In this document: positions 41,528 through 56,125 of the stretch, piece after piece
Layout: each line of letters starts with the position of its first letter
How positions within the stretch are numbered: the stretch's first letter is position 1
Source of the DNA: an uncultured bacterium
GTDB lineage: Bacteria; Latescibacterota; MWCZ01
Length of the DNA stretch: 64,000 nucleotides
Assembly: GCA_964510105.1 (NCBI GenBank)
Contig: CAZEAI010000008.1
Span: 6,923 to 70,922, forward strand
Reading direction: 5' to 3'
The notes under the pieces: generated by a model
What the model was told of the DNA's origin: nothing
Seen by the model: the letters and a program-made list of their open reading frames with translations, nothing else
Databases searched by the model: none
Made by a program: the position numbers and the translations under genes

Positions 41528-42097
41528 GAGGCCGATCCGCCCCGGTCGGATTGGCGAATCGCGTGGCCGCGACGGGCGCTCTGTCCCTCGCGGCCGCCTG
41601 CGTGCGGGGTACCGCTGTGCGGGCTACCATGGGGGTGCCACGCCACCGCTGCCCTCGTCCGCACCCTCAACGCCGTGTCGACGTGCCTCCGGTGAGCGCT
41701 CAGGCTTCGCCCTTCGCGCAGGGTTTGATGTTCGCGCTATCCGAAGTAATTTCCACGCCATAAGCGGCAGTTAGCCATATCCGTTCCGTACCGAGCTAGG
41801 GCGAGGAAGGAATCGGTAATGGGCTCCCAACGGCTGTTCGACGGCGTACCTGTCGTACAGCGCTGCCTCGGCAGCCATCGCGAGACCCCCGCTGGATCTC
41901 CGAGTGCGTTCGGGCAAACGGCGTCTGCTCGCCACCTCCCAAGTTCCGCCCTGATCCATCCACGTCGTCCGACACCGCAGCCTTCGAATTGCAGCGTACT
42001 ACACCCGCGCCCGCGCCATCCCCACCATCGCAGACCATGCCATCGGCCTGCGCCGGAAGGGGCGGACGTTCTTGAGGCTCTCAAAGGAGAATGAGCT

Positions 42098-42601
42098 ATG
42101 CGAACAAGGCTGGGGTACTGGATCTCCGCCGGGATCGTCGTCCTGCTCGCGGGATGCACCGCGAACCAGGATTCCACGATCAAGTCGAATGTCGAGCGGT
42201 ACCTGACTGAGAGCGCTCGAGCTGTTAACGCGCGAGACTGGGAGGCTTACGGAGAACTCTTCACCGAAGACCTGCTGATGTTCGCTCCGGGATTTCCCGG
42301 GACAAGGGGGCGGGACGCTCGTCTGGAGATGGTTCAGGGCATCATGGCAGCGTTCCCTGACGGTCGCGTGGATGGGCAGCGGGCGTTCGGCAAGGGCGAA
42401 TGGGCCTGCTTCCAGTTCGAATTCTCCGGCACAAACACTGGGCCGCTCGCAGCGGCTGACGGCAGCGAGATACCCGCCACCAACAAATCTGTCAAGTTCT
42501 CATACTGCATCGTTGCGCGGTACGAGGCAGGGCAGATCGCCGAACTCCATGAGTACTTCGATCAGATGGACTTGCTGACGCAGCTTGGCCTTGTGCCGTA
42601 G
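42098..42601 (+). CDS. SnoaL-like (ester-cyclase / NTF2-fold) lipoprotein
   Basis: Lipobox LLAGC, followed by the typical SnoaL block ...DWEAYGELFTEDLLMFAPGFPG.... Confidence 0.55.
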   Translation: MRTRLGYWISAGIVVLLAGCTANQDSTIKSNVERYLTESARAVNARDWEAYGELFTEDLLMFAPGFPGTRGRDARLEMVQGIMAAFPDGRVDGQRAFGKGEWACFQFEFSGTNTGPLAAADGSEIPATNKSVKFSYCIVARYEAGQIAELHEYFDQMDLLTQLGLVP

Positions 42602-42760
42602 AGGGGGCTGAGCGACCGCATGGTGCGGACGGCGACCCCTGGCCTCGGCGAAAACAGTGGCGTCGGAGGGTTGACGCGTGCCGCTATGGCGAATCTCGCA
42701 CCGGATCAGCTCAACACAGGCTGCGTAGAGGTTAGGGACACTCTCAGAGGAGGGCGTACG

Positions 42761-43243
42761 ATGCGAGCGAGACAGACTTGCTGGATTGCCGTCGGGGTCG
42801 GCCTGATGTCCATGGGTTGCAGCGCGACGGGGATGGCGGACCGCGATGCTTTCGAGGCGGCAGCAAAGGAGTTGGCTCAGGACTACTCCGTGGCCGTGGA
42901 TAGTGGAGATGTGAATCTCTATGTCACCCATTTGGACGACAACGCGATATACATGGCGCCAGGCGCTCCGGAACACAGTGGGCGGGCGGCTGTCGGAAGA
43001 GCGTTGGGAGAGTGGTTCGCGGCAGTGAATTTCGAGGAATTCGCCGTCAACCTTGAAGAGTTCGAGGTGTTCGGTGATTTCGGCTACATCCGTGGCACGT
43101 ACTCCTGTCTCACGATCCCATGGGCAAGTGGGGACACAACTCGGTTTGAGGGCAAAGTCCTGAGCATCCTGAGACGGCAACCCGACGGTTCCTGGAGGAT
43201 CTACCGCGACTGCTTCAACTCGAACGGGCTTCCGGCTATCTGA
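42761..43243 (+). CDS. NTF2-like (DUF4440/SnoaL-type) lipoprotein
   Basis: Signal peptide with MSMGCS. The C-terminal ...RQPDGSWRIYRDCFNSN motif is shared with the 48597-51033 paralogues. Confidence 0.5.
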   Translation: MRARQTCWIAVGVGLMSMGCSATGMADRDAFEAAAKELAQDYSVAVDSGDVNLYVTHLDDNAIYMAPGAPEHSGRAAVGRALGEWFAAVNFEEFAVNLEEFEVFGDFGYIRGTYSCLTIPWASGDTTRFEGKVLSILRRQPDGSWRIYRDCFNSNGLPAI

Positions 43244-43452
43244 CGTTGGCGCCATACCGGCGCCGACGACGGCGAGCTGTCATGCGCACCGGGAGACGGA
43301 GACGCACCGGTCTTTACTACCAGCTATTCCTTAGTATATTACCCCCTGATGTCGATCGCTGAGCGGGATAGTTGTACACGGCCCGCCCGTTCCTAGTGCC
43401 CTCCGTAGGCGGGTGGTCCCGCGCACTGCCGGCGCCGCCCGAGGTGGTCGCA

Positions 43453-46400
43453 GTGGATACTCAACGGCGAGCAGACGACGCAACTCTGGTCGGGCGTTGC
43501 CTCGACGGTGACCGCGAGGCGTTTGCCGGGCTCGTGCAGGCCTACGAGCAGACCGCCCTCGCGACGGCGATGGCGTACGTCGGCAACTCGGACGACGCGG
43601 GAGACGTCACCCAGGACGCCTTCGTCACGGCCTTCACGTCGATCGGCGATCTACGAAACCCGGCGCAGTTCGGGAGCTGGTTCCGACGAATCGTGCAGCG
43701 GCACGCGCTTGAGCGTGTACGCGATGCCGGACGAAGCACCCCTCTCACCGACGAGCACGGCGCCACACCCCCGCCCGCGTCGCCGGATATGCCGCAGACA
43801 TCGTTCTCCGCCGACGTGTCGTCCGCCGTGCAACAGCTTCCGATGGCATACCGCGACATCGTCCTGATGTATTACCTCAACGACTTGTCCTACCGCGGCA
43901 TCGCGGAGATCATGGACCTGCCGGAGTCGACGATACGGAGCCGTCTGCGAACGGCACGGCGAAGGCTGAAAGGCGTCCTGCCCAGACAAGGCCGCAATCG
44001 CGGCGCCGACGACCACGGGCAGATCCGCTCGGCGATTCAGAAGTCGGTAGGCAAGCGCCACTATCGCGACGCTCTCGAACGCCTCCTGTCGGCCGGAATG
44101 GAGCACATACGCGATACGCTCTCGGATGAGGAACAGGAGCTGTTCGGACGGAACGTCGAGACGATCCTCTCGCACGTAACCGGCATCGAGGACGAAAGCC
44201 CGTGCAGAGCGGATTGGGGGGAGGCGCCCGACGTCGAGGGATTCGTCGGGCGCGCGGAGGAACTCGCGACGTTGCGCACGTGGATCGCGGACGAGCAGTC
44301 GCGCCTGATTGCCGTCATCGGTATGGGTGGAATCGGTAAGACAGCACTCGCGGCAAGAGCAGCCAGGATCGTCGCAGGCCAGTTCGAGTGCGTCTTCTGG
44401 CGATCGCTGGTGAACGGACCGCCGCTTTCGAATGTGCTCACTGAGTTGATCGGGCACCTTCTTGGCGAGTTCAGCGTGCCACGCTCCGATCGGATCGACG
44501 AGCAGATCCGACGCGTCATGGAGTACCTGCGGTCCCACCGCTGCCTCATCGTGTTGGATAACGTCGAGGGAATACTGGAGGCCGGCGCCGCCGGTCGCTT
44601 CCGCGAGGGATACGAAGGTTACGGGCAACTGATACGACAGTTCAGCGAGTGCCCTCACCAGAGCACGGCGCTGCTCACCAGCCGTGAGCGGCCGCGCGAT
44701 TTCGCTCTTGTGGAGCGTGTTGACGGAACCGAACTGCACGCCTTCGAGCTGAAAGGCTTGGATGGCGACGCCGCACGGGAGCTTCCGGGCCTGGAGAGCA
44801 TTGCAGCATCGGACGACGACTGGCAGACGCTGGTGGAGCATTTTTCCGGCAATCCGCTCGCTTTGAGGCTGGTGGCGGAGAAGGTGTTGGACCTGTTCGG
44901 GGGAGATCTGTCACACTTCCTCGCGGCCGGACTTCCGCTGTTCGACGACGTGCGCGACATACTCGATCGGCAGTTCGAACGCCTGACGCCGCTTGAGCGT
45001 GACGTGATGTGCTGGCTGGCGATCGTACGGGAGCCGGTAACTCCGGATGAGATCCGCGTACGACTGGTTCCGGCCGTGTCGGCGAGTGAGCTTCTCCAGA
45101 TCATGCACTCCCTCAGTCTGCGAACGCTCGTGGAGCACCGTTCGGGTACGTTCCTTCTGCAGAACGTCATCACCGAGTACGTTACCGACCGAATCGTCGA
45201 ACAGGCGGCCGGCGAAATCGCGGCGGGCCTGGTGACTCTCCTGGATACCCACCCGCTGACGATGGCAACGGCGAGACCCAACGTGAGAGACGCACAGCGG
45301 CGTCTGATACTGTCGCCCGTCGGCCTTCGCGTGGTGAACGAATTCGGCCCGAACGCCGTGGAAGAAGCGCTGAAGGCAACCGTCGATTCGCTTCGTGCCG
45401 GCGACGCGCTCCCGAACGGGTATGCCGCGGGCAACTACTTCGACCTCGTGGCTCATCTCTTCGGCGAGGTGGTCGGCTGGGATTTCTCGCACCTCTCGGT
45501 CCGTCAGGCGGACCTGACCAGTGCACACGTGCACGACACCAGCTTCGCGCACTCCGTGTTCGGCGAATGCGCGCTTCAGCACGCACATGGCAACGTGGAT
45601 TGGGCTGAATTCAGTCCCAGCGGCCGGGAGATAGCGATCTCAGCGTTCGGACGACTGGAAACGCGATCGTTCCCGGGCCTGGAGCCGCTCAGCGCCGATT
45701 GCACGGAGGGTGTACGGTCGGCGACGTACACGACAGACGGTCGCCTCCTCGCCATCCGTCTTGAGCACGCGGAGAGTTGGCCGGAAGCAGCCGATCGCTA
45801 CTCGCCTCGACGGATCGATGGTGGGACCGGTAGCAGATGGCATAACTCTGTGATGGATGTTGCATCTGGAGCGGCCCTGTTGGAATACGATGTGCAGTGG
45901 ATGAATATCGGCTGCCTATGCCCTTCCGGCAGGCTACTCGCCCACGACGACATCGACTTCACCATCAAGGTGCTCAACCTGGAGAACAAGGAGTGCGTCG
46001 CGACGCTGCCGAGCAGCGTAGGCCGCCTCTCTCAGCACGGACTGGCATTCCACCCGGACGGTGAGATGCTGGCAACCTGTGGCTACGACGGATCGGTCAG
46101 GGTGTGGGATGTTCGGTCAGCCGAATGCAAATGGACGTCCGAGCAACAAGGATGTAGCAGAATCGCATTCACCCCGGACGGCGACAAGCTTGCTATCTCC
46201 GATACCCACAGCCATCGGACTCGGTTCATGGACGCCGATTGCGGTACGTGTCGAGGCACCATGGAGGCGGCTCTGCTGTCGTTCCATCCCGACGGCAGAA
46301 CGGTGGCCGGTCACGATTCGGCCAACCGCATCGTGATCTGCGCCGTCGATACCTCCGATCTCGCGGCGACATTCCGAAGCGAAACGGGGATGGTGACGGC

Positions 46401-48279
46401 CGCCTCGTTCAGCCCGGATGGACGGTACTTGTTGGTGGCGGAGGAGCCGGGCCTGCTCCGCGTCTGGGATCTGGAGACGGGGCAAAGCCTGAATTCGTCA
46501 CAGGGAAACCGGCACGCGAACGAGCCGAGGGCCGATATCGACCCAACCGGAAGACTTGTGGCCGTAGGTGAGGAAGCGGGCCAGGTGCATGTCTGGGACG
46601 TATCGGCGTCGCGCGTCGTCACGACACTGCGTGAGCGAGAGGCCCTGCTATCTGCGCACGAGTTCACGCCCTCGGCAAGCTCTCCGTCTGAACGCGACTG
46701 GCTCAACATAGATGAAGAGTGGAGAGTCTACGATGAAGACTCGGAACTATGCATCAACACAGCGGATGGGAGTCTGCGACGACAGACGCACCGAATTGCC
46801 TCGCCTGTACGCGACGTGGTTTTCAGTCCGGACGGATCGCTTGTGTCGGGCGCGGATCCGGCGGACCGGGGATTCAGGGCATGGCACGTGAGCACGGGAG
46901 AGTGCGTTGGCTGGTACAACAGATCGCATGCCGTCCGCTATGTCTGTTTCGCGCCGAATAGCTCGCTCGTCGCCTGTCACACGACGGATGACGAGGCCGA
47001 ATATCCGACAACGATCTGGAATTGTCGTACCGGGCAGCTCGTTCGTGGGCTCCCGTGTCACTCGTGGCATATGGCTTTCACCCCGGACGGCAGAACCTTC
47101 GCGGGAGCGACCTACCGCGACGGGGAATTCGTCATGAACCTGTGGGACGTTTCCTCGGGTGAGCGACGGCTGTCCCTCGAAGCGCGGGAGTGGATAACGT
47201 ATTTCTGGCTCTACAGCGTGACCGGATTCAGCGCGGACGGGAGACTGCTGGGTACGTGTCTGGGCGGCCCGAACTACAGGGGAGCCATCGTGTGGGATAC
47301 GGCTGTAGCTGAGCCGCTGCTGAAGGTGCCCGGCAGCAAATACCTCAGCTTCCTCGAGAACGACCGAGTGTTGGTTCGCGGCGGGATGGAAGGCCAGACG
47401 GTGTCGGTCGTGGACGTCCGAACGGGTGAACAGATGGACTCGTGGAACACCAGTATCACCGGCCCGACCAGAGCATTCAGCTCCGACGGCAGGATGATTG
47501 TCACGGCATCGGAGCATCAGCCGGGTGTATCGGTCTGGAATGTCGACGATGGATCCCACGTGTGCACGATTCCCCGGATTCGTCCGTACGATGGAACGAA
47601 CATCGCGCACGCGGACGGGCTGACGCCTGCCGAAACAGCGACACTGAAACGCCTGGGCGCCATCGAGCAAGAGGTGGGGCTCTCCCCTGCCGAGCCCCAG
47701 TCGCCGCCGCGTTCGTCGCCACGGGACCCTCTCGAACGACGATTCACCGCATGGGCAGGGGGACCGAGGGCGCTCGTGTCGGTCGTCTGCGTCGAAGCGG
47801 CCGATCGAACCATCCTGTCCGACCGGCTTGAGGGTAACCAGCGCGTCGAACGCATGCGCGCCCGGCACGCACAACGGCTGCGGGATCTCACCGGTCGGCA
47901 CCACGGGCTGACAATCTGCGACGACGGCGCGAGCGCTTCCATCGCTTTCCACACACCCACGGAGGCGCTGGAGTTCACGCGAGAGTGCCGTCGAGAGACA
48001 GAAGCGGACGGGATCAGGCTGCTTACCGGCATCCATGTGGAATCGATCAGGATCGGGAGCGAGGACCCCTTCGACCACCTTGCCACACACCTTACCGGGA
48101 TAGTCGAGAAGGCGAATTCGTCCGGGGTCTGGGCGAGCGACGAATACAAGGACCTCCTTGCGAGATTCGGTCCGAACGGCCTGCCGGAGCCGGTGTGGAT
48201 CATGCACCCCAACTGCCAGCTCAAAGGGCTTCCGGGGAAGCACAAGCTATGGTCGCTGACCGACGACGCGCCGGCCTGA
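43453..48279 (+). CDS. ECF sigma-70 factor fused to an NB-ARC/STAND NTPase, WD40 repeats and a C-terminal class-III-cyclase-homology-like domain
   Basis: Sigma-70 region 2 (AFAGLVQAYEQTALATAMAYVGNSDDAGDVTQDAFVTAF) and region 4 (LPMAYRDIVLMYYLNDLSYRGIAEIMDLPESTIRSRLRTARRRLKG). Then FVGRAEELATLRTW...IAVIGMGGIGKTALA...CLIVLDNVE...GNPLALRLV, the NB-ARC P-loop/GxP motifs. Then at least 10 WD40 units (FHPDGEMLATCGYDGSVRVWDV...). Then a roughly 170-aa C-terminal domain matching the cyclase pattern (...IRLLTGIHVESIRIG...VWIMHPNCQLKGLPGKHKLWSL). This is one uninterrupted frame. The start is set at the GTG at 43453 after AGGTGG; the exact start is uncertain (43372-43453). Confidence 0.65.
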   Translation: MDTQRRADDATLVGRCLDGDREAFAGLVQAYEQTALATAMAYVGNSDDAGDVTQDAFVTAFTSIGDLRNPAQFGSWFRRIVQRHALERVRDAGRSTPLTDEHGATPPPASPDMPQTSFSADVSSAVQQLPMAYRDIVLMYYLNDLSYRGIAEIMDLPESTIRSRLRTARRRLKGVLPRQGRNRGADDHGQIRSAIQKSVGKRHYRDALERLLSAGMEHIRDTLSDEEQELFGRNVETILSHVTGIEDESPCRADWGEAPDVEGFVGRAEELATLRTWIADEQSRLIAVIGMGGIGKTALAARAARIVAGQFECVFWRSLVNGPPLSNVLTELIGHLLGEFSVPRSDRIDEQIRRVMEYLRSHRCLIVLDNVEGILEAGAAGRFREGYEGYGQLIRQFSECPHQSTALLTSRERPRDFALVERVDGTELHAFELKGLDGDAARELPGLESIAASDDDWQTLVEHFSGNPLALRLVAEKVLDLFGGDLSHFLAAGLPLFDDVRDILDRQFERLTPLERDVMCWLAIVREPVTPDEIRVRLVPAVSASELLQIMHSLSLRTLVEHRSGTFLLQNVITEYVTDRIVEQAAGEIAAGLVTLLDTHPLTMATARPNVRDAQRRLILSPVGLRVVNEFGPNAVEEALKATVDSLRAGDALPNGYAAGNYFDLVAHLFGEVVGWDFSHLSVRQADLTSAHVHDTSFAHSVFGECALQHAHGNVDWAEFSPSGREIAISAFGRLETRSFPGLEPLSADCTEGVRSATYTTDGRLLAIRLEHAESWPEAADRYSPRRIDGGTGSRWHNSVMDVASGAALLEYDVQWMNIGCLCPSGRLLAHDDIDFTIKVLNLENKECVATLPSSVGRLSQHGLAFHPDGEMLATCGYDGSVRVWDVRSAECKWTSEQQGCSRIAFTPDGDKLAISDTHSHRTRFMDADCGTCRGTMEAALLSFHPDGRTVAGHDSANRIVICAVDTSDLAATFRSETGMVTAASFSPDGRYLLVAEEPGLLRVWDLETGQSLNSSQGNRHANEPRADIDPTGRLVAVGEEAGQVHVWDVSASRVVTTLREREALLSAHEFTPSASSPSERDWLNIDEEWRVYDEDSELCINTADGSLRRQTHRIASPVRDVVFSPDGSLVSGADPADRGFRAWHVSTGECVGWYNRSHAVRYVCFAPNSSLVACHTTDDEAEYPTTIWNCRTGQLVRGLPCHSWHMAFTPDGRTFAGATYRDGEFVMNLWDVSSGERRLSLEAREWITYFWLYSVTGFSADGRLLGTCLGGPNYRGAIVWDTAVAEPLLKVPGSKYLSFLENDRVLVRGGMEGQTVSVVDVRTGEQMDSWNTSITGPTRAFSSDGRMIVTASEHQPGVSVWNVDDGSHVCTIPRIRPYDGTNIAHADGLTPAETATLKRLGAIEQEVGLSPAEPQSPPRSSPRDPLERRFTAWAGGPRALVSVVCVEAADRTILSDRLEGNQRVERMRARHAQRLRDLTGRHHGLTICDDGASASIAFHTPTEALEFTRECRRETEADGIRLLTGIHVESIRIGSEDPFDHLATHLTGIVEKANSSGVWASDEYKDLLARFGPNGLPEPVWIMHPNCQLKGLPGKHKLWSLTDDAPA

Positions 48280-48390
48280 CGCAATTCTCAGTCGCCGCGC
48301 GACCGACAAGTCGCACGGGCTCGGCACGATCCATGAACTCCTCGCGGCGCGTCGCCCCACCACGGGGATCGTCAGGCGGTATTTTCGCAG

Positions 48391-48495
48391 TGCGGTAAGC
48401 GACTTACGCACCTTTCGCGCTATACCCCCCTGGGGGTCGGAATGCCTCGACATGAGCACATCCAGCCACCGTACTCCATCTAGTAGGCAGCAGCG
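48391..48495. repeat. about 100-bp conserved intergenic element A with a CCCCCC-T-GGGGG palindrome
   Basis: About 75% identical to 51271-51360 (GCGACTTACGCA..TTTCGC.CTATACCCCCC(T)GGGGGGTCG.AATGCC...CATCC...CCATC). Confidence 0.5.
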
Positions 48496-48596
48496 GGCAG
48501 AGCAGCGGTGATTCGTATCGCCGTGAGAAGCCTCGTGTTGTACCGATTCGAACCAGATCAACTGGACACCCGGCACACACGCGGAGGAGGAGAGCA

Positions 48597-49085
48597 ATGC
48601 GCACGAAATCAGTGTGCTGGATCGCCAGCGGCATCATCGCCACCATCGTTGTTCTCGCGGGCTGCGGCGACGGCTCGGCGGACGCGTCGGGCGATGTGGA
48701 CTTCGGCGCAACTCTTGCGGAACATGCGGCGAAGTATGCCGCGGCGTGCAACGCGGGCGATGCGGACGCCTACTGCGCCTTACTCGACGAGAGTTTCACT
48801 CAGTTGCCACCAGGCGCTCCACCATTCATTGGGAAGGCAGCCGTCAGGGATGCGATAGGAGGGTTTTTCGAGGCATACGATCTCGAGGATTTCACGATCG
48901 AAACACAAACGTACGAGGTGTCCAGGGAATTTGCATGGAATTGGGGCACGTATTCCTATCGCACGGCTCCAATGGGTACGACCGATTTCGCTCCGTACGA
49001 GGGCAAGTACCTGAGCGTACTGAAGAAGCAGCCTGACGGTACCTGGTTGTTCTACATTGGCTGCTTCAACTCGAACACGCATTAG
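48597..49085 (+). CDS. NTF2-like (DUF4440/SnoaL-type) lipoprotein, paralogue 1
   Basis: GGAGGAGG RBS and lipobox VLAGCGDG. Conserved blocks ...AAACNAGDADAY...FAWNWGTYS...KKQPDGTWLFYIGCFNSN. Confidence 0.6.
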   Translation: MRTKSVCWIASGIIATIVVLAGCGDGSADASGDVDFGATLAEHAAKYAAACNAGDADAYCALLDESFTQLPPGAPPFIGKAAVRDAIGGFFEAYDLEDFTIETQTYEVSREFAWNWGTYSYRTAPMGTTDFAPYEGKYLSVLKKQPDGTWLFYIGCFNSNTH

Positions 49086-49248
49086 GGTAGATCGCGCCGT
49101 CGGCGATAGCACCAACGAAACGGGCGGGTCTCCTGAGATGGCAGCCCCGTACCGCCTGCACGGCCGACAGCGATCTGCGGAAACCGGAGCGACTGGGGAG
49201 TTCGTTCCGGCGCATCGTTCAACAGCTCCTCGAAGGGGAGGAAGAGCA

Positions 49249-49746
49249 ATGCGATCACGACTGACGCGTTGGATTATCAGCCGTATTGCGGGCAGCAGCG
49301 ACGACGCGACCACAGTCCCGACGACGGCGGAGACCGAGGGCTTCGAGACGGGCCCCGAGGAATTTGTGCGGGCCTTTGTGGCAGCGTGTAAGGCTGGGGA
49401 TCTGGATACCTACATGGCCCTTGTCGACAAGGACTTCGTCAGGATGCCCCCGGATGCTCCACCGATCGTCGGAGAAGCGGCGATCAGGGAGTGGGCCAAA
49501 GGTTTCTTCGAGACATTGGAACTTGAGGAATTCACGGTCGATAATCGCGAATCCCACGTGTTCGGCGATTTTGCCTGGTTCTGGGGCACGCACTACATTC
49601 GCTCGGCTGTCAAGGGACAGGAACCCTCGGTATGCGAGCATATCGACGGCAAGCACCTCACTGTTCTGAAGAAACAGGCTGATGGCTCCTGGGCGGTGAT
49701 CGCCGACTGCTTCAATGGAAACGCACCTCCTACTGTGCCAAACTGA
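49249..49746 (+). CDS. NTF2-like protein, paralogue 2 (lipobox Cys replaced: IAGSSDD)
   Basis: Same fold blocks as paralogue 1. The start is at MRSRLTRWIISRIAGSSDD, preceded by the GGGGAGGAAGAG motif shared by all paralogues. Confidence 0.55.
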   Translation: MRSRLTRWIISRIAGSSDDATTVPTTAETEGFETGPEEFVRAFVAACKAGDLDTYMALVDKDFVRMPPDAPPIVGEAAIREWAKGFFETLELEEFTVDNRESHVFGDFAWFWGTHYIRSAVKGQEPSVCEHIDGKHLTVLKKQADGSWAVIADCFNGNAPPTVPN

Positions 49747-49885
49747 CGCGGTGGGGGGGCATCCGAACGCGCCGGGCGGGCTGCCGTGCGGGTAGCTCCG
49801 GCCGCTCTCAACGTCGCACGGCGGTCAAGCGATCCACAGAGGCCTGCGCACCGTTCAGCAGCGTCTCGAAGAGGAGGAAGAGTAA

Positions 49886-50391
49886 TGCGAACGCAACTAG
49901 CCCGTTGGGTCACCAGCGGCATCATCGTCGTTCTCGCGGGCTGCGGCGACGACAGGGACAGCGGCCCAACGGCGGCCGAGATCGAAGCCTTCGAGGCGGC
50001 TGAGGTGACGCTTCCGCAAGCGTATGCCGCGGCGTGTAACGCGGGGGATGCGGACGCGTACGTCGCTCTTATCGATGACGACTACGTTCAACTGCCCCCT
50101 GATGCTCCACCGGTCATTGGGAAACCGGCCATGCTCGAGCGAATCAGACTGATGTTCGGGGCGTATGATTTCGAAGAATTCACCGTCGATAACCGCAAGG
50201 CGGAGATGTTTGGCGACTGGGGTTGGGTCTGGGGTACGCACTCCTATCTCCTGGCACCCCAGGGCACGACCGAATTCACAAAGTACGACGGCAAGCACCT
50301 GAGCATTCTGAAGCGGCAAGCCGACGGTTCCTGGCTGTTCTACGGCGACGCCTTCAACTACAACGCTCCCGCGATGAAACTGGCGCCCTGA
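49886..50391 (+). CDS. NTF2-like lipoprotein, paralogue 3
   Basis: MRTQLARWVTSGIIVVLAGCGDD lipobox. Conserved ...AAACNAGDADAY...KRQADGSWLFYGDAFNYN. Confidence 0.6.
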
Positions 50392-50523
50392 GCGAGCGTA
50401 CCGAAAGGCCGGACGCGACTCAGTGCACGGGTGGTCCCGCCCGTTCTCGACGCTGAGGCGGAGGGCGGGTCGCCCATACGACCGTCGCATCGGTTGGCTG
50501 CGCACTCGAAGGGGAGGAAGAGA

Positions 50524-51033
50524 ATGCGATCCCGACTGACGCGTTGGATTACCAGCCGTGTTGCGGGCAGCAGCGACGACACCACCGCCGTCCCGACAGC
50601 GGCGGATGTCGAGACTTTCGAGGCATTCCTTGCGAGGCTTGCGGTGGGTGCGGATGGGTATGCCGCGGCGTGTAACGCCGGGGATATCGACGCCTTCTGC
50701 GCCCTACTCGATGAGGACTTCACTCAGATGCCGCCAGACCAGCCACCATGCGTTGGGAAAGCGGCCGTTAGGGAGCGAATGGCAGGACTGTTCGCGGCAG
50801 TTGATCTCGAGGACTTCACGATCAACCACCAGGATTGGGCCATGTTTGGCGATTTTGCCTTCCTGTGGGGCACGTACTCCTGTCGCACGGCGCTGCAGGG
50901 GCAGACACCCCCGGTATGGAGTTCGTTCGACGGCAAGTACCTGAGTGTCGTGAAGAAGCAGACTGATGGTTCCTGGCTGGCGTACCTCGACTGCTTCAAC
51001 TCCAACGTTCCTGGAGCGGAATTGGCGCTGTGA
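50524..51033 (+). CDS. NTF2-like protein, paralogue 4 (lipobox Cys replaced: VAGSSDD)
   Basis: MRSRLTRWITSRVAGSSDD... and conserved NTF2-like blocks, with the same upstream motif. Confidence 0.55.
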   Translation: MRSRLTRWITSRVAGSSDDTTAVPTAADVETFEAFLARLAVGADGYAAACNAGDIDAFCALLDEDFTQMPPDQPPCVGKAAVRERMAGLFAAVDLEDFTINHQDWAMFGDFAFLWGTYSCRTALQGQTPPVWSSFDGKYLSVVKKQTDGSWLAYLDCFNSNVPGAELAL

Positions 51034-51270
51034 GCGAGCGTACCGACAGACCGGGGGGCTCCCGCGCATGGAGCCCCCCCGGTCTCCGTACCGCCCTTAC
51101 GCACGCGAGCCTGCCTGGCGCCGCATTCACCCGGCGTGCTCGCGGCGCCGTGACACCTCCTCCAACACCGCCTGACGCACTGATCGCGCCGCGTCGACGC
51201 GAGCTGCGGATTCCTCACGAACTGTCACGCCTCAATGAGAACCTCAGGGTTCCGTTCGCGCAGTCCAGTG

Positions 51271-51360
51271 TGCGACTTACGCAGATTTCGCCTATACCCC
51301 CCGGGGGGTCGCAATGCCCCGGTTCGGCCACATCCGGCTGTCCCCATCCATCTAACAGGC
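51271..51360. repeat. about 100-bp conserved intergenic element B (perfect CCCCCCGGGGGG palindrome)
   Basis: Paralogous to 48391-48495. Located between the last NTF2-like gene and the cyclase-homology ORF. Confidence 0.5.
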
Positions 51361-51437
51361 AAGCAATCACGGTCAACTGCCCGGACCGTGGGAGTCACAT
51401 CGCATCAGGGCGGGAAGATCGAGTTAGGGAGGCATCG

Positions 51438-52052
51438 ATGGCCTGCGATCGCGAATCGGGCGATCACGGATCGGGCGAAAACGACCTCAGCGTCGAGCCC
51501 GTGTCGAGCGGAATCGCGCTAGTCTCACTAGTAGCGACACTCCCCGCCGACCCGTCGGTCCTCGTCGCCCGGCTCGAAGGGAACGAGCGAATCGAGCGGG
51601 CACGCCGGGCGGTGGCGTCCAGGGCGAGCGACGTGATCGGGAATCACAGTGGATGGCAGGTCGCCGGTAACGGCGAATCGATCACGGCTGCCTTCGGAGC
51701 GCCATCGGAAGCGCTTGACTTCGCGCTTGAGCTGCAGTTCGACACCGGTTCGCGGCTCATCAGGCTGCGTGTGGCGGCGCACGTTGACGTCGTGGCAGAT
51801 CGGGGATCCGGCGTCGCCTGCGGCGACGTGGGACCGTACGACGACATGCTCGCCTTCACGCGGCAGTTGCTGCGGAGGAACGGCGGCACGGAGGTGTGGA
51901 CGAGCAACGATTTCAAGACTCAGATCGACCACCACGGCACAACGCGTCAACGAGAACTCGACTGGATGATGCGACCAAACTGCGTGCTCGACGGGTACGA
52001 GGGACGGCACATCCTCTGGTCGGTGAATAGCCGCGAGGCGGCGATTCCTTAG
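51438..52052 (+). CDS. stand-alone class-III nucleotidyl-cyclase-homology-like domain protein (degenerate)
   Basis: GGGAGG RBS. 205 aa. ...IALVSLVATLPADPSVLVARLEGNERIERARR...IRLRVAAHVDVVADRGSGVACGDV...DWMMRPNCVLDGYEGRHILWSV parallels the cyclase blocks (VTVLFADIVGFT / RIGIHTGxVV / xELKGK). It is paralogous to the C-terminal domain of the ECF-STAND protein. Confidence 0.45.
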   Translation: MACDRESGDHGSGENDLSVEPVSSGIALVSLVATLPADPSVLVARLEGNERIERARRAVASRASDVIGNHSGWQVAGNGESITAAFGAPSEALDFALELQFDTGSRLIRLRVAAHVDVVADRGSGVACGDVGPYDDMLAFTRQLLRRNGGTEVWTSNDFKTQIDHHGTTRQRELDWMMRPNCVLDGYEGRHILWSVNSREAAIP

Positions 52053-52167
52053 GCAGTTCGCTCTGCGAACTGCAAAACGAATGCGAGCGCCACGAGCGTT
52101 CGCCGCGCGGGCAGCCCCGCTCCACCCGTTCCTCCTCGGGGCTGCCTGCCATGGAAAGGAGTTCATC
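52053..52167 (+). promoter_or_regulatory. conserved intergenic element, copy 1: terminator-like hairpin, conserved spacer, then leader hairpin, upstream of a T9SS cargo gene
   Basis: GCAGTTCGC-tct-GCGAACTGC hairpin immediately after the stop codon. A conserved ACGAAxGCGAGCGCCACGxGCGTTCGCC spacer follows. A second hairpin GGCAGCCCCG-n17-CGGGGCTGCC sits 20 nt before the RBS. Confidence 0.5.
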
Positions 52168-53517
52168 ATGAACATGCGCCGCACCATCCTTCTGTGTCTG
52201 GGGATGCTGCTCTGCGCGGGAGTCCGAATCGCACACTCAGCCCCCGCCATCGCACCCGACTGGATACAAAGCGGCCATTCGAGCTATGTGTTATGTGTGG
52301 CGATAGACTCGGTTGGGAATACCATCGTTACGGGGAGCGCCGACCGCACGATTAAGGTGTGGGACCTGTCCGGCGGCAGGTTGCTGCGGACGCTCCCCGT
52401 TCCCGACAGTGGCGACGAGGGTCACACGGCCGGCGTACAAAGCGTGGCGATCAGCCCTGACGGGAGCACGATCGTCTCGGGAGACTGGGACCACACTACG
52501 AAGGTGTGGAACCTGTCCGACGGCAGGCTGCTACGCACGCTCATCGGCGGCAGAGGCGATGCGTGGAGCGTAGCTTTCGCCCCGGATGGTAACACGGTTG
52601 TCTCGGGCGGCTTCGATGCCACGATCAAGGTGTGGCGGCTGTCCGACGGCACCGTGCTGCGCATACTCAGAGGCCACACGAGCTACGTGACCAGCGTGGC
52701 AGTCAACGGGAATACTGTCGTCTCGGGGAGTGCCGATCGTACGGTCAGAGTGTGGGATCTGTCCGACGGCACGCTGTTGCGGACCCTCACTGCTTCAAGC
52801 TGCGCGGGCGCCGGTCATACCGCTTGCGTGGCCAGTGTGGCGATCAGCCCCGATGGGGACAGGATCGTCTCGGGGAGCGCCGACGGCACGATCAAGGTAT
52901 GGAATCCGTCCGACGGCACGCTGCTGCGAACACTCCCAGTCCCGGGCGGCGGCGACGCGGCACACACGGGTGGTGTCCGAAGCGTGGCGATCAGCCCCGA
53001 CGGGAACAGGATCGCGTCGGGAGGTCTCGACGCCACGATCAAGCTGTGGAGTCTAACCGAAGGCTCGCTGGAGAAGACCCTCGCCGCCCATGGGAACACG
53101 GTGTGGAGCGTGGCGATTAGCTCCGATGGCGGATCCATCGTGTCAGGTGGAGGAGACGCACGGGTGATCCGATGGGGTGTGTATCCGCCGCTCAAGACGC
53201 TGACACCGCCTAGTGCGGTAGAAGGGAATCCACGGCAAGCTCGTGCGACCTTGTCACAGAACGTCCCGAACCCGTTTAACCCATCGACGTCCATCCCGTA
53301 CTCGCTTGCGTCGGACGGCGTTGTGCGGCTCGAGTTGTACGACGCGATCGGCCGGCCGGTGCGGACGTTGCTGGCCGACTACCGCCACGCGGGAGAGCAC
53401 TCCGTCGTGTGGGACGGTCGCGACGACGCGGGTCGCGCGGTAGCGAGTGGCGTCTACGTTGTACGGATGGTGGCAAGCGGCTTCGTCACAGCGCGGAAGG
53501 TGACACTGCTGCGATAG
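52168..53517 (+). CDS. secreted WD40-repeat protein with a T9SS (Por) C-terminal sorting domain
   Basis: Signal peptide MNMRRTILLCLGMLLCAGVRIAHS. About 8 WD40 units (TIKVWDLSDGTLLRTL...). C-terminal NVPNPFNPSTSIPYSLASDGVVRLELYDAIGRPVRTL... T9SS CTD. Confidence 0.7.
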   Translation: MNMRRTILLCLGMLLCAGVRIAHSAPAIAPDWIQSGHSSYVLCVAIDSVGNTIVTGSADRTIKVWDLSGGRLLRTLPVPDSGDEGHTAGVQSVAISPDGSTIVSGDWDHTTKVWNLSDGRLLRTLIGGRGDAWSVAFAPDGNTVVSGGFDATIKVWRLSDGTVLRILRGHTSYVTSVAVNGNTVVSGSADRTVRVWDLSDGTLLRTLTASSCAGAGHTACVASVAISPDGDRIVSGSADGTIKVWNPSDGTLLRTLPVPGGGDAAHTGGVRSVAISPDGNRIASGGLDATIKLWSLTEGSLEKTLAAHGNTVWSVAISSDGGSIVSGGGDARVIRWGVYPPLKTLTPPSAVEGNPRQARATLSQNVPNPFNPSTSIPYSLASDGVVRLELYDAIGRPVRTLLADYRHAGEHSVVWDGRDDAGRAVASGVYVVRMVASGFVTARKVTLLR

Positions 53518-53645
53518 CGAGAGGATTGCCGCAGTTCGCCTAGCGAGCTGCAAGACGAAAGCGAGCGCCACGCGCGTTCGCCGCGCGGGCAGCCCCGTTC
53601 CACCCGTTCCTCTTCGGGGCTGCCTGCCATACAGAGGAAAGAGTC
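53518..53645 (+). promoter_or_regulatory. conserved intergenic element, copy 2
   Basis: About 90% identical to copy 1. Hairpin 1 carries a U-G wobble change (GCGAGCTGC). Hairpin 2 is identical. Confidence 0.5.
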
Positions 53646-56045
53646 ATGATACGCACACTGACAACGCTCACAGCCACGCTGTTCGCGCTCGGCCCGCTCG
53701 CTGGGGCAAATACGGACGTCAGCGGCGAAATCACGACTACCACGTGGACCGCCGCAATGGGCCCCTATCAAGTCACCGACACGATCACCGTCCCGACGGG
53801 CAACACGCTCACCATCGAGCCAAGCGTGGATGTGCTCTTCGACGCCGACGTGCCGTTCGTCGTCGAGGGCGCGTTGGATGCAGTCGGCACCGAAGTCGAC
53901 AGCATCCGGTTCATCGCGGGCACCGCCGACGAGTGGGGCGGCATCCGCTTCAACGGCGGCGACTCAAGCACGATCCACTACGCGCGCGTCAGCGATGCAT
54001 TCACCCACGCGCCCTCTCCGTTTGTTGGTGGCGAAGGAGGCGGCATCCACCTGTTGAGCTCATCGCTCGGTCTGGCACACTCTGTCGTAAGCGGCAACAC
54101 AGTCGAGGGCTACGGAGGTGGTCTGTTCGCCGACAGCGCCACCGTCACACTCGACTCATGCGCGATCACGGGCAACGCGGCGAAGAAGGCCATGGCTGGC
54201 GGCGACGGCGGTGGCGTTTATGCGGTCGAGTCGACCGTTTCGTTAACTGGATGCGCGGTGTCTCAGGACAGCGCCGCTGGCGCTGGAGGCGGCGTACACG
54301 GCCGGAACTCGACGCTGTCTCTCGAGGCGTGCGACATCCAAGACAACGCCAGCCTGTCCACTGGCGGAGGGCTCCACCTCGTTGGGGGCACCGTCGGTAT
54401 GACGGTATGCAGTGTCTCGAACAACGACGCCGGAGGCACAGGAGGTGGGCTATACACCACTGGGGTCGACATGGTCCTGGCTGACTGCGACGTATCGGGT
54501 AACGCATCAGGCGCGTCTGGGGGCGGGCTGTGCGTTGCGGGAAGCGGAAGCGGTCTCACCCTGACCGACTGCACTGTGTCAGCGAACGTGGCTGGTCTCA
54601 ACGGCGGCGGAATGGTTCTCAACGGGGTTACTGCGACGCTCGCAGGCTGTGCCGTCGATGGCAACTCGGCAGGTACGGCGCCGGTCGCAGGCGGCGGCTC
54701 CGGCAATGGCGGGGGATTTTCCGCAAGGGGTGGGGCGATCACGCTCTACAACTCCACGGTGAACCGCAACACGGCAGGCAAATGGGGTGGGGGGTTCTAC
54801 ACCGGCGGCACGGCGGTCACTATGGGTGCCTGCGAGCTCCGGGGAAATGCGTCCTGGGGAGGGGCCCCGACCGATTTCTTCGGCGGCTCGACCGTTACGA
54901 TGACGAACTGCCTCGTGGCCGGGAATACTGCCTTTCTGCCAAGCGCAGGCCTGGATTTCCATGATGCCTCCGCGACGCTGGTGAATTGCACCGTCGTCGA
55001 CAATCGGTCGCTGGGCGAACCCGGTTGTACCCCGCCGGACAGCGTATGGGGAATCATAGGCGCCGCCGCCAGCAGCCCGGACCAGACGATCACACTCATC
55101 AACTCCATCATCTGGGGACACAGTGGGGACCACGGTCTGGACTACTGGCTATGCGGAGCAGAAACGGGCGTCTGCCCGGGGATCTGCATCCCAGGACCTT
55201 TCCCGCCTGGCGCGCCGACGACTGCGACCTACTGCGCCGCCGGGGCCGTCAATGTGGAAGGGTGGTGGTCGAGCGTGGGGAACGTCAACGCCGACCCGAT
55301 GTTTGTCGACACGATCGCGTACGCGCTGCTGCCGAGCTCACCGTGCATCGACACGGGGTCACATTACATCCTCGATGAGGACGGCTCCCCGTCGGACATG
55401 GGGTACACCGGCGGAGGGCGGTACGGGCGGTGCCAGGTGTCACTCGTGCCGGACACGCTGTACCGCGACTCCACTGACTTCGTTCGCGTCAGGAACGTCG
55501 GCGACGCGCCTCTCGGCGTGTTCGAGCCGGACCTTCCTGATTCGTTTGTGACGGACATGGTCTTCCCGCAAGCCGTTGAGCCGGACAGCACGCTCTACAT
55601 TCCGGTGACGTATACCCAGCGCGGCTACCATGAGAAGACCGCCGTCATCCATACTTCTGATCCGTGGACACCGGATACGGTGGTGCTGCTGAAGGGCAAG
55701 TGGCCCGTGGCGATAGCAGCAATCGCTCGCCCACCGGCGTTCGCGCTGTCGCCGAACGTCCCGAATCCGTTCAACCCGGCGACGCGCATCCCATATGCGC
55801 TCGCGTCGGACGGGGATGTGCGGCTCGTGCTGTACAACACCCTCGGCCAGCGCGTGCGTACGGTCGTGGACGAATATCGAAGCGCGGGCGAACACTCCGT
55901 CGTGTGGAATGGGCGCGACGACGCGGATCGGCCCGCGGCGAGCGGGGTGTACATCGTGCGGCTGACTCACACTGGGGCGAATCGGAACGATTCGCGGACG
56001 AACTCGAACGCAGTGAGAGTTCGCAGGGTGACGCTGCTGCGATAG
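53646..56045 (+). CDS. secreted right-handed parallel beta-helix (Pmp-like) repeat protein with a T9SS C-terminal sorting domain
   Basis: Signal peptide MIRTLTTLTATLFALGPLAGA. Dozens of GGG[LV]x / NxAxxGGG repeats of about 22-25 aa. C-terminal NVPNPFNPATRIPYALASDGDVRLVLYNTLGQRVRTV... CTD. Confidence 0.65.
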   Translation: MIRTLTTLTATLFALGPLAGANTDVSGEITTTTWTAAMGPYQVTDTITVPTGNTLTIEPSVDVLFDADVPFVVEGALDAVGTEVDSIRFIAGTADEWGGIRFNGGDSSTIHYARVSDAFTHAPSPFVGGEGGGIHLLSSSLGLAHSVVSGNTVEGYGGGLFADSATVTLDSCAITGNAAKKAMAGGDGGGVYAVESTVSLTGCAVSQDSAAGAGGGVHGRNSTLSLEACDIQDNASLSTGGGLHLVGGTVGMTVCSVSNNDAGGTGGGLYTTGVDMVLADCDVSGNASGASGGGLCVAGSGSGLTLTDCTVSANVAGLNGGGMVLNGVTATLAGCAVDGNSAGTAPVAGGGSGNGGGFSARGGAITLYNSTVNRNTAGKWGGGFYTGGTAVTMGACELRGNASWGGAPTDFFGGSTVTMTNCLVAGNTAFLPSAGLDFHDASATLVNCTVVDNRSLGEPGCTPPDSVWGIIGAAASSPDQTITLINSIIWGHSGDHGLDYWLCGAETGVCPGICIPGPFPPGAPTTATYCAAGAVNVEGWWSSVGNVNADPMFVDTIAYALLPSSPCIDTGSHYILDEDGSPSDMGYTGGGRYGRCQVSLVPDTLYRDSTDFVRVRNVGDAPLGVFEPDLPDSFVTDMVFPQAVEPDSTLYIPVTYTQRGYHEKTAVIHTSDPWTPDTVVLLKGKWPVAIAAIARPPAFALSPNVPNPFNPATRIPYALASDGDVRLVLYNTLGQRVRTVVDEYRSAGEHSVVWNGRDDADRPAASGVYIVRLTHTGANRNDSRTNSNAVRVRRVTLLR

Positions 56046-56125
56046 TCGAGGCGAACCGGAGTTGCGTAGCAACTCCCAGACGAACGTGAGCATCGCGAGC
56101 GTTCGCGGGGCTGCCGGCAACACTT
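56046..56125 (+). repeat. conserved intergenic element, copy 3 (partial)
   Basis: GGAGTTGC-gta-GCAACTCC hairpin with two compensatory base-pair swaps relative to copy 1, followed by the CGCGAGCGTTCGC conserved spacer. No cargo gene follows. Confidence 0.4.

Follow-up and report, generated by a model that had tools for sequence, protein, structure and literature searches.

Fusions between a sigma factor and a STAND module (NB-ARC/WD40) are known mostly from genome surveys. ECF promoters of the RpoE/AlgU type have TCTRA as their -10 element (GGAACTT-N16-TCTRA) and a CGTC -10 is common among ECF groups, while class I activator-dependent promoters are exemplified by CRP at -61.5. No target promoter of sigma-STAND fusions is described in the literature that was read. 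Among regulators, ECF57 comprises sigma factors with WD40-rich C-terminal extensions (PMC8999054). Among operators, the closest described ones are, by resemblance, the type-2 operators of the CsoR family, with the streptomycete consensus ATATACCCCTNAGGGGTATAT and a TAC-X9-GTA dyad (PMC3902906). Here, we analysed a repeated intergenic element beside a sigma-STAND gene, in an organism rare in databases, and conclude that it is real and lineage-conserved and most likely a duplicated promoter/operator region, a control region of an ordinary kind.

The element lies in a part of the window (the whole stretch of 64,000 nucleotides that was analysed) with 64% GC, where the genes around it are on the + strand. 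Their order is two SnoaL genes, the sigma-STAND gene, copy A of the element, four SnoaL/DUF4440 genes, a hairpin, copy B and a gene for a 204-aa protein, followed by genes whose products are a WD40 protein and a beta-helix protein, each carrying a FlgD_ig tail. The main features are:

43453-48279, + strand: sigma-STAND gene, encoding an ECF sigma factor (regions 2 and 4) followed by NB-ARC, WD40 and, at the C-terminus, a cyclase-like domain (Pfam; NCBIfam TIGR02937, 81 bits; C-terminal homology)
48597-49085, 49249-49746, 49885-50391 and 50524-51033, + strand: four SnoaL/DUF4440 lipoprotein genes, the copy A unit (48597-51033)
51047-51085, + strand: terminator-like hairpin after SnoaL#4, GACCGGGGGGCTCC...GGAGCCCCCCCGGTC (fold z = -3.4, 0/200 shuffles as stable)
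51438-52052, + strand: 204-aa class III cyclase-like gene, the first after copy B, paralogous to the STAND C-terminus

The sigma-STAND gene has about 1,610-1,635 codons and its sigma core is complete (TIGR02937, 81 bits); its true start is probably GTG 43453, which follows GAGGTGG, and not TTG 43372, which opens the longest open reading frame. PADLOC gave no defence-system match for the protein. Its C-terminal ~200 residues (47683-48276) and the 204-aa protein form one family with 34% identity, and the family profile matches class III cyclase domains (Ma1120 4wp9, Rv1900c 1ybt) at E ~1e-6, so the label of cyclase homology, given to the 204-aa frame at first reading, holds. By eye, the first metal-binding Asp position of this family appears to be replaced and the second is Glu; if these positions are altered, the cyclase-like domain may be catalytically dead. 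The hairpin after SnoaL#4 has a stem of about 15 bp, begins 14 nt past the stop codon and has no T run; it looks like a terminator and would set the SnoaL array apart from the transcription unit of copy B. The two SnoaL-like lipoprotein genes upstream of the sigma-STAND gene (42098-42601 and 42758-43243) are preceded by a 570-nt gap (41528-42097) from which the element is absent. A second family of intergenic repeats occurs at 52053-52171, 53531-53649 and, in part, 56071-56118 (119 nt, 86% identity); these repeats immediately precede the genes for the secreted proteins (WD40 and beta-helix), are found twice also on a contig of a relative (L011), and form three strong hairpins (-58 kcal/mol, z = -4.6, 0/200 shuffles as stable).

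The element itself is present twice, in the following extents:

48377-48491, + strand: copy A core (nhmmer E 3e-32; blastn to copy B E 4e-12)
51251-51363, + strand: copy B core (nhmmer E 3e-31)
48303-48376, + strand: weakly conserved upstream extension of copy A, ACAAGTCGCAC...GAACTCCTCGCGGCGCG (five-way alignment; 92% identical to its counterpart A' in a relative)
51175-51250, + strand: weakly conserved upstream extension of copy B, ACTGATCGCGC...GATTCCTCACG, common to version C (five-way alignment)

The first-pass annotation had proposed a repeat of about 75% identity over about 95 bp. Such a repeat exists, with a comparable 68% identity over the 117-column core of a MAFFT alignment and 85% over a 61-bp core when the two intergenic regions were compared with the window by blastn (E 4e-12). 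Weaker homology reaches about 75 nt further upstream (48303-48376 and 51175-51250). Using nhmmer profiles built from 2, 3, 5 or 6 versions, we found two copies and no more in the 64 kb window, both on the + strand, the next best match having E > 1. GCGACTTACGCA likewise occurs exactly twice in the window, and so does CTATACCCCCCNGGGGG, for which 0.33 matches would be expected by chance (up to 3 mismatches). In the pairwise alignment, the runs identical between the copies are GCGACTTACGCA, TTTCGC, CTATACCCCCC, GGGGGTCG, AATGCC, CACATCC and TCCATCTA. The segments had been placed correctly, but the element begins about 14-20 nt further upstream than was proposed. The palindrome described as perfect in the shared region is so only in copy B (CCCCCCGGGGGG, C6G6), while copy A reads CCCCCC-T-GGGGG.

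Both copies lie in long intergenic gaps, in the same orientation as the next gene. Copy A starts 98 nt past the stop codon of the STAND gene (48279) and ends 106 nt before ATG 48597; copy B ends 75 nt before ATG 51438, and both of these start codons are preceded by good Shine-Dalgarno sequences. The similarity of A and B stops about 8 nt past an invariant TCTA, and the leaders beyond are unrelated between the two.

Versions of the element were found in three further lineages, all beside the same SnoaL or cyclase-like gene families despite rearrangements of gene order, which answers the concern, raised with the original proposal, that related genomes might show no conservation. In total, we compared six versions (A, A', B, B', C and D) from four independent lineages. 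The exact 204-aa protein is encoded on six short metagenome contigs (L001-L006), which belong to the same strain and carry an identical element without variation. Versions A' and B' are those of a relative (L011, L012 and L040) that has the same gene order and about 91% nucleotide identity. Version C (L007:1775-1896, MAG GCA_964606675.1; L007 is identical to L010, and L008 is the same sequence) is a single copy before a SnoaL gene, in a lineage whose coding regions are about 64-75% identical to the window and whose genes run cyclase-like, SnoaL, C, SnoaL, cyclase-like fragment, WD40. The fragment, L007:2645-2842, is a 65-codon piece matching the C-terminal third of the cyclase-like gene, between the SnoaL and WD40 genes, and is a rearrangement remnant in that lineage. 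Version D (L041:79-199, an ENA contig) is within 260 nt before a SnoaL gene. A 124.7 kb contig (JGI 3300072015), known by its gene map and tied to L041 by a SnoaL protein of the same 90%-identity cluster, has an ECF-STAND gene (1,602 aa), a gap of 279 nt, SnoaL, a cyclase-like gene and genes for secreted FlgD_ig proteins, which indicates that D follows the ECF-STAND gene. A profile search found the element absent from the gap between the SnoaL and cyclase-like genes of the D lineage (L009, L042). In that gap, L009:420-520 holds the remnant of a SnoaL start (ribosome-binding site, ATG, lipoprotein signal peptide, frame break), which suggests gene decay in the array of this lineage. In the simplest history, a single ancestral element stood between the sigma-STAND gene and a SnoaL/cyclase-like operon, and the window lineage amplified SnoaL and gained a second copy before the cyclase-like gene.

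A profile built without C recovers C at E 3.6e-5 (5 Mb search space). Pairwise core identity is 84% for A/A' and B/B', 57-68% between A-type and B-type versions, and 48-53% to C. Between the window and its ~91% relative, identity is 85% over the core and 61-67% over the unconstrained spacer next to it; next to copy A, the upstream extension is 92% identical to A', the adjoining stretch 48280-48302 being 61% identical. In the same pair the core differs by 15% and third codon positions by 4-15%. The core thus diverges about as fast as third codon positions, so constraint is block-wise and not global. Conservation of this block-wise kind, with fixed spacing across lineages of 50-65% core identity, argues for function. 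Wider searches gave little more. The strict 20-base pattern TTACGCAN{10,13}TACCCCCCNNGGGGT matched one contig (L007) among 185,579 species genomes, a set of representatives that does not include the source genome, and a scan of metagenome contigs with TACCCCCCNNGGGGT-N41-TCTA yielded 27 loci, all chance palindrome matches, without recovering the known JGI contigs. A search of the window for further regulon sites (CAYMTC-N15-17-TCTA; G/C-rich TAC-N10-GTM) returned the two known sites and otherwise chance-level matches.

The conserved blocks within the two copies, together with the leader behind copy A, are:

48380-48410, + strand: upstream block of copy A, TATTTTCGCA-N11-GACTTACGCA (TTCGC and TTA-GC kept in the six aligned versions)
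48423-48438, + strand: palindrome of copy A, TACCCCCCTGGGGGTC (TAC-N10-GTC), centred about 58 nt upstream of the predicted start
48457-48463, + strand: -35-like box of copy A, CACATCC, 16 nt before TCTA (CAYMTC in 6/6)
48476-48483, + strand: -10-like box of copy A, CCATCTAG, its invariant TCTA 48 nt after TACCCCCC; predicted start about 48488-48491
48492-48596, + strand: 5' leader of SnoaL#1, kept in A' and C but without a counterpart in copy B
51295-51310, + strand: palindrome of copy B, TACCCCCCGGGGGGTC (TAC-N10-GT(A/C) match)
51329-51335, + strand: -35-like box of copy B, CACATCC (motif search)
51348-51355, + strand: -10-like box of copy B, CCATCTAA; predicted start about 51360-51363

The columns invariant in the six-way alignment are TT..CG.A in the first block, A.TTA..C, TACCCCC followed by G.GGT, CAYMTC, and C.TCTA. 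All six versions contain the TTCGC...GACTTAYGC block and a palindrome of C and G runs framed as TAC-N10-GT(A/C), which ends in GTA in B', C and D and in GTC in A, A' and B. The point at which C changes to G moves between versions (C6TG5, C6G6, C7TG4, C5G7), while the dyad distance stays at 10. From TACCCCC to TCTA there are exactly 48 nt in each of the six, although the block before the palindrome varies by 1 base. The box upstream of TCTA reads GCACATCC, CCACATCC, TCACCTCC or GCGCATCT; its CAYMTC lies 16 nt before TCTA in A and B, whereas in C and D the distance is 17 nt and the box is shifted by one base towards the palindrome. The -10-like box is CCATCTAG, or the same with a final A, in A, A', B and B', and CGTCTAG in C and D.

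We consider it rather probable that a single cis-regulatory region, made up of a promoter and upstream operator sites, is present here in two paralogous copies. The start site, the acting sigma factor, the protein that binds the palindrome and the sign of regulation are what we infer from the alignment and the gene context. Transcription would start about 6-9 nt past the invariant TCTA, near 48489 and 51361. With the A/B similarity ending about 8 nt past TCTA and the A-type leader kept in A' and C, the pattern is the one expected if the start is just past TCTA. The promoter would have an ECF-type arrangement, with (C)RTCTAR as its -10 and GCRCATC, 16-17 nt upstream, as its -35. TCTAA/TCTAG fits the TCTRA of RpoE/AlgU-type promoters, and the CGTCTA of C and D contains CGTC; the ECF-type spacer of 16-17 nt is present as well (16 in A and B, 17 in C and D). 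The AAC core (GGAAC/TGAAC) of an ECF -35 is absent from the box upstream of TCTA.

Copy A would then drive the array of SnoaL-like lipoproteins, and copy B the cyclase-like gene, probably along with the genes that follow it, for the secreted WD40 and beta-helix proteins. The strong terminator-like hairpin that copy B follows was counted in favour of a promoter of its own at copy B. The leader of SnoaL#1 is conserved between lineages (48492-48596; L007:1897-1992; L012:1671-1775), and one hairpin in it changes on both sides, from CCAG...CTGG in the window to CCGG...CCGG in L007; the leaders of L007 and L041 fold better than shuffles (z = -2.8 each), those of the window no better.

As for the sigma factor, the adjacent ECF-sigma/NB-ARC/WD40 protein would be the obvious candidate, since its ECF core is full and its adjacency to the element is kept in the lineages where it is visible. 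The first-pass annotation had offered promoters of this sigma factor, forming an autoregulated regulon. The promoter part is the best-supported class of reading, with copies that are intergenic and co-oriented, a spacing kept in four lineages and an ECF-type -10, though with a -35-like box that has no usual AAC. The autoregulated part found no support: both motif and element are absent upstream of the sigma-STAND gene (43372/43453), which has a good sigma-70-like site of its own instead (TTTACT-N16-TATATT, 43313-43340).

With its centre near -58 and its distance constant, the palindrome may bind a symmetric oligomeric regulator, which would activate from a class-I-like position or modulate the promoter; the TTCGC...GACTTAYGC block would be a further protein contact upstream. 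For a classical repressor, a site centred near -58 would be poorly placed, which counts against this layout. That the dyad is fixed while the C/G switch moves suggests recognition by a symmetric protein, which would read both the dyad and the G-tract shape. The earlier suggestion of a site for a dimeric regulator is thus plausible for the palindrome, which keeps TAC-N10-GT(A/C) in six of six versions as the C/G boundary shifts, and the promoter and regulator readings are both reasonable and mutually compatible. A more specific model is tentative and, in our judgement, rather unlikely to be right in full: the element would be the target promoter of a one-component sigma-STAND regulator, with an unusual AAC-less -35 (GCRCATC) and a second input through the phase-locked CsoR-like palindrome, and the free-standing 204-aa paralogue could feed back by heterodimerising with the degenerate cyclase-like domain of the regulator.

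Other explanations were weighed against the promoter-operator reading. We think it improbable that a tetrameric repressor, of the CsoR/RcnR/FrmR family (DUF156) or similar, uses the palindrome as an operator that overlaps a weak sigma-70-type promoter (GCGACT-N15/16-TATACC), with transcription beginning right inside the palindrome or after it and what remains of the element forming the 5' UTR. The palindromes CTATACCCCCCTGGGGGTC, GATACCCCCCGGGGGGTAG, CCTACCCCCCCTGGGGTAGG and GGTACCCCCGGGGGGGTAA do closely resemble the streptomycete type-2 consensus and its TAC-X9-GTA dyad (PMC3902906), and a constant dyad distance with a mobile C/G boundary is allowed by G-tract shape readout. However, the dyad spacing is 10 and not 9 in all six versions, three of the six have GTC instead of GTA, and the G-tract is broken in A' (GGTGG). 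The putative -10 TATACC has no -7 T and is replaced by CCTACC in C and by GGTACC in D, conservation of the -35 does not extend to C, and the invariant TCTA at its fixed 48-nt distance is left unexplained. No CsoR/RcnR/FrmR homologue was detected by phmmer among the six-frame ORFs of the window (E > 0.3 throughout, with CsoR, RcnR and FrmR sequences as queries). Separately, a scan for a sigma-70 promoter within the element found no -35/-10 pair, and none of the candidate hexamers is retained in C and D; a MerR-type layout, with the palindrome between -35 and -10, was rejected as the flanking hexamers are not conserved.

It is distinctly improbable that the element marks a boundary of recombination, belongs to a REP-like mobile repeat or is left over, without function, from a segmental duplication. 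The copies do flank a four-gene array, and the locus is recombinogenic, as seen from the body swap in SnoaL#1, the truncated cyclase-like fragment in L007 and the shuffled gene order. In the swap, window 48674-49143 corresponds to L011:307-790 and L012:1851-2334; the replacement protein (P0007) is 45% identical, whereas the flanks show 90-94% DNA identity in the ~91% relative. The breakpoints fall inside the signal-peptide region and past the stop codon, and the event, the only one of its kind visible, has the look of a cassette exchange or of gene conversion among the paralogues of the array. The first-pass annotation had considered the copies as recombination boundaries of the NTF2 cassette. 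The array period is about 640 bp and excludes the element, relatives with un-amplified SnoaL genes have a single copy beside them, and the swap breakpoints at 48674 and 49143 lie away from it, so this proposal was not borne out. Nor does the element have terminal inverted or direct repeats of its own or a stable stem-loop of the REP/BIME type (fold z -0.4 to +0.8). The scarcity of the strict pattern, with one contig among the 185,579 species genomes (source genome not included), and the block-wise conservation with fixed spacing across lineages also speak against a mobile or functionless repeat.

An RNA-level element, either a structured 5' UTR/riboregulator or a leader-peptide attenuator in which a Shine-Dalgarno-like G run pairs with the C run before a 13-codon ORF, seems very unlikely to us. 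Such an ORF, equal in length and ending at TCTAG or TCTAA, is found in A, A', B and D (in the window, ATG 48442 to TAG 48483, MPRHEHIQPPYSI, and ATG 51314 to TAA 51355, MPRFGHIRLSPSI), with the G run 5-10 nt before its ATG. Its start is kept in these four versions only, being AAG in B' and GTA in C; the element thus has no conserved ORF. Changes between A and A' and between B and B' are mostly non-synonymous within it, and by our own estimate an open frame of this length arises by chance in about 40% of cases at 64% GC. At the RNA level, Rfam 15 gave no match in the whole window at the gathering threshold and, at E < 10, only an irrelevant miRNA model in 48200-51700. Fold z-scores of the element are between -0.4 and +0.8 on both strands, with no excess stability over shuffles, and RNAalifold on the six versions gave a weak consensus (-7 kcal/mol) with a covariation term of +0.25 and hence no covariation bonus.

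A sigma-54 promoter, with the G run as -24 GG, AATGC as -12 GC (GG-N10-GC) and the TTCGC/TTACGC blocks as an enhancer-binding-protein site, is highly improbable: GG-N10-GC with a -12 TGC is found in A, B, B' (AAGC) and D, but A' (TGT) and C (TACA) lack the -12 GC, the G run would yield the GG in any case, the supposed enhancer site is placed just 20-45 nt upstream, the conserved TCTA is unexplained, and no sigma-54 activator was present among the proteins scanned.

Returning to the promoter-operator reading, its interest is in the position of the element beside a sigma-STAND gene, which makes it a concrete candidate for the target promoter DNA of such a fusion and suggests a regulon of few members, made up of SnoaL-like lipoproteins that are exported and of WD40 and beta-helix proteins that are secreted. 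Otherwise, it would be a control region restricted to its lineage, in an uncultured bacterium that is rare, and not a new class of element.

Compared with the operators of the CsoR/RcnR type-2 class, the element shares a pseudopalindrome of C- and G-tracts, which a TAC...GTA dyad frames in B', C and D, with tract lengths that vary at a fixed dyad distance. It differs in its X10 spacing (X9 in the operators), in GTC in 3/6 versions, in AT-rich flanks that are mostly missing, and in a palindrome that lies about 58 nt upstream of the predicted start and not over the promoter; moreover, there is no DUF156 gene in the window, and the targets are unrelated to metal/persulfide stress. Class I promoters are similar in layout, the symmetric site of the element being centred about 58-60 nt upstream of what would be the start, at an invariant distance to the -10 box; the palindrome, however, is unrelated to CRP/FNR boxes, and the start in this comparison is a predicted one.

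The likeness to ECF promoters consists in two short boxes 16-17 nt apart, a -10-like TCTAA/TCTAG or, in two lineages, CGTCTA, an adjoining ECF sigma gene and targets that encode exported proteins. Unlike those promoters, the element has GCRCATC, without AAC, as its -35-like box and an extra palindrome locked in phase upstream, while the sigma gene itself is without the motif and its product continues into NB-ARC, WD40 and cyclase-like domains. Judged by domain architecture, the sigma-STAND protein may be a regulator of the ECF57 type: like the members of that group, it combines a complete ECF core with a long WD40-repeat extension and has no adjacent anti-sigma gene, and it differs from them in having, in addition, an NB-ARC NTPase and a cyclase-like domain of class III.
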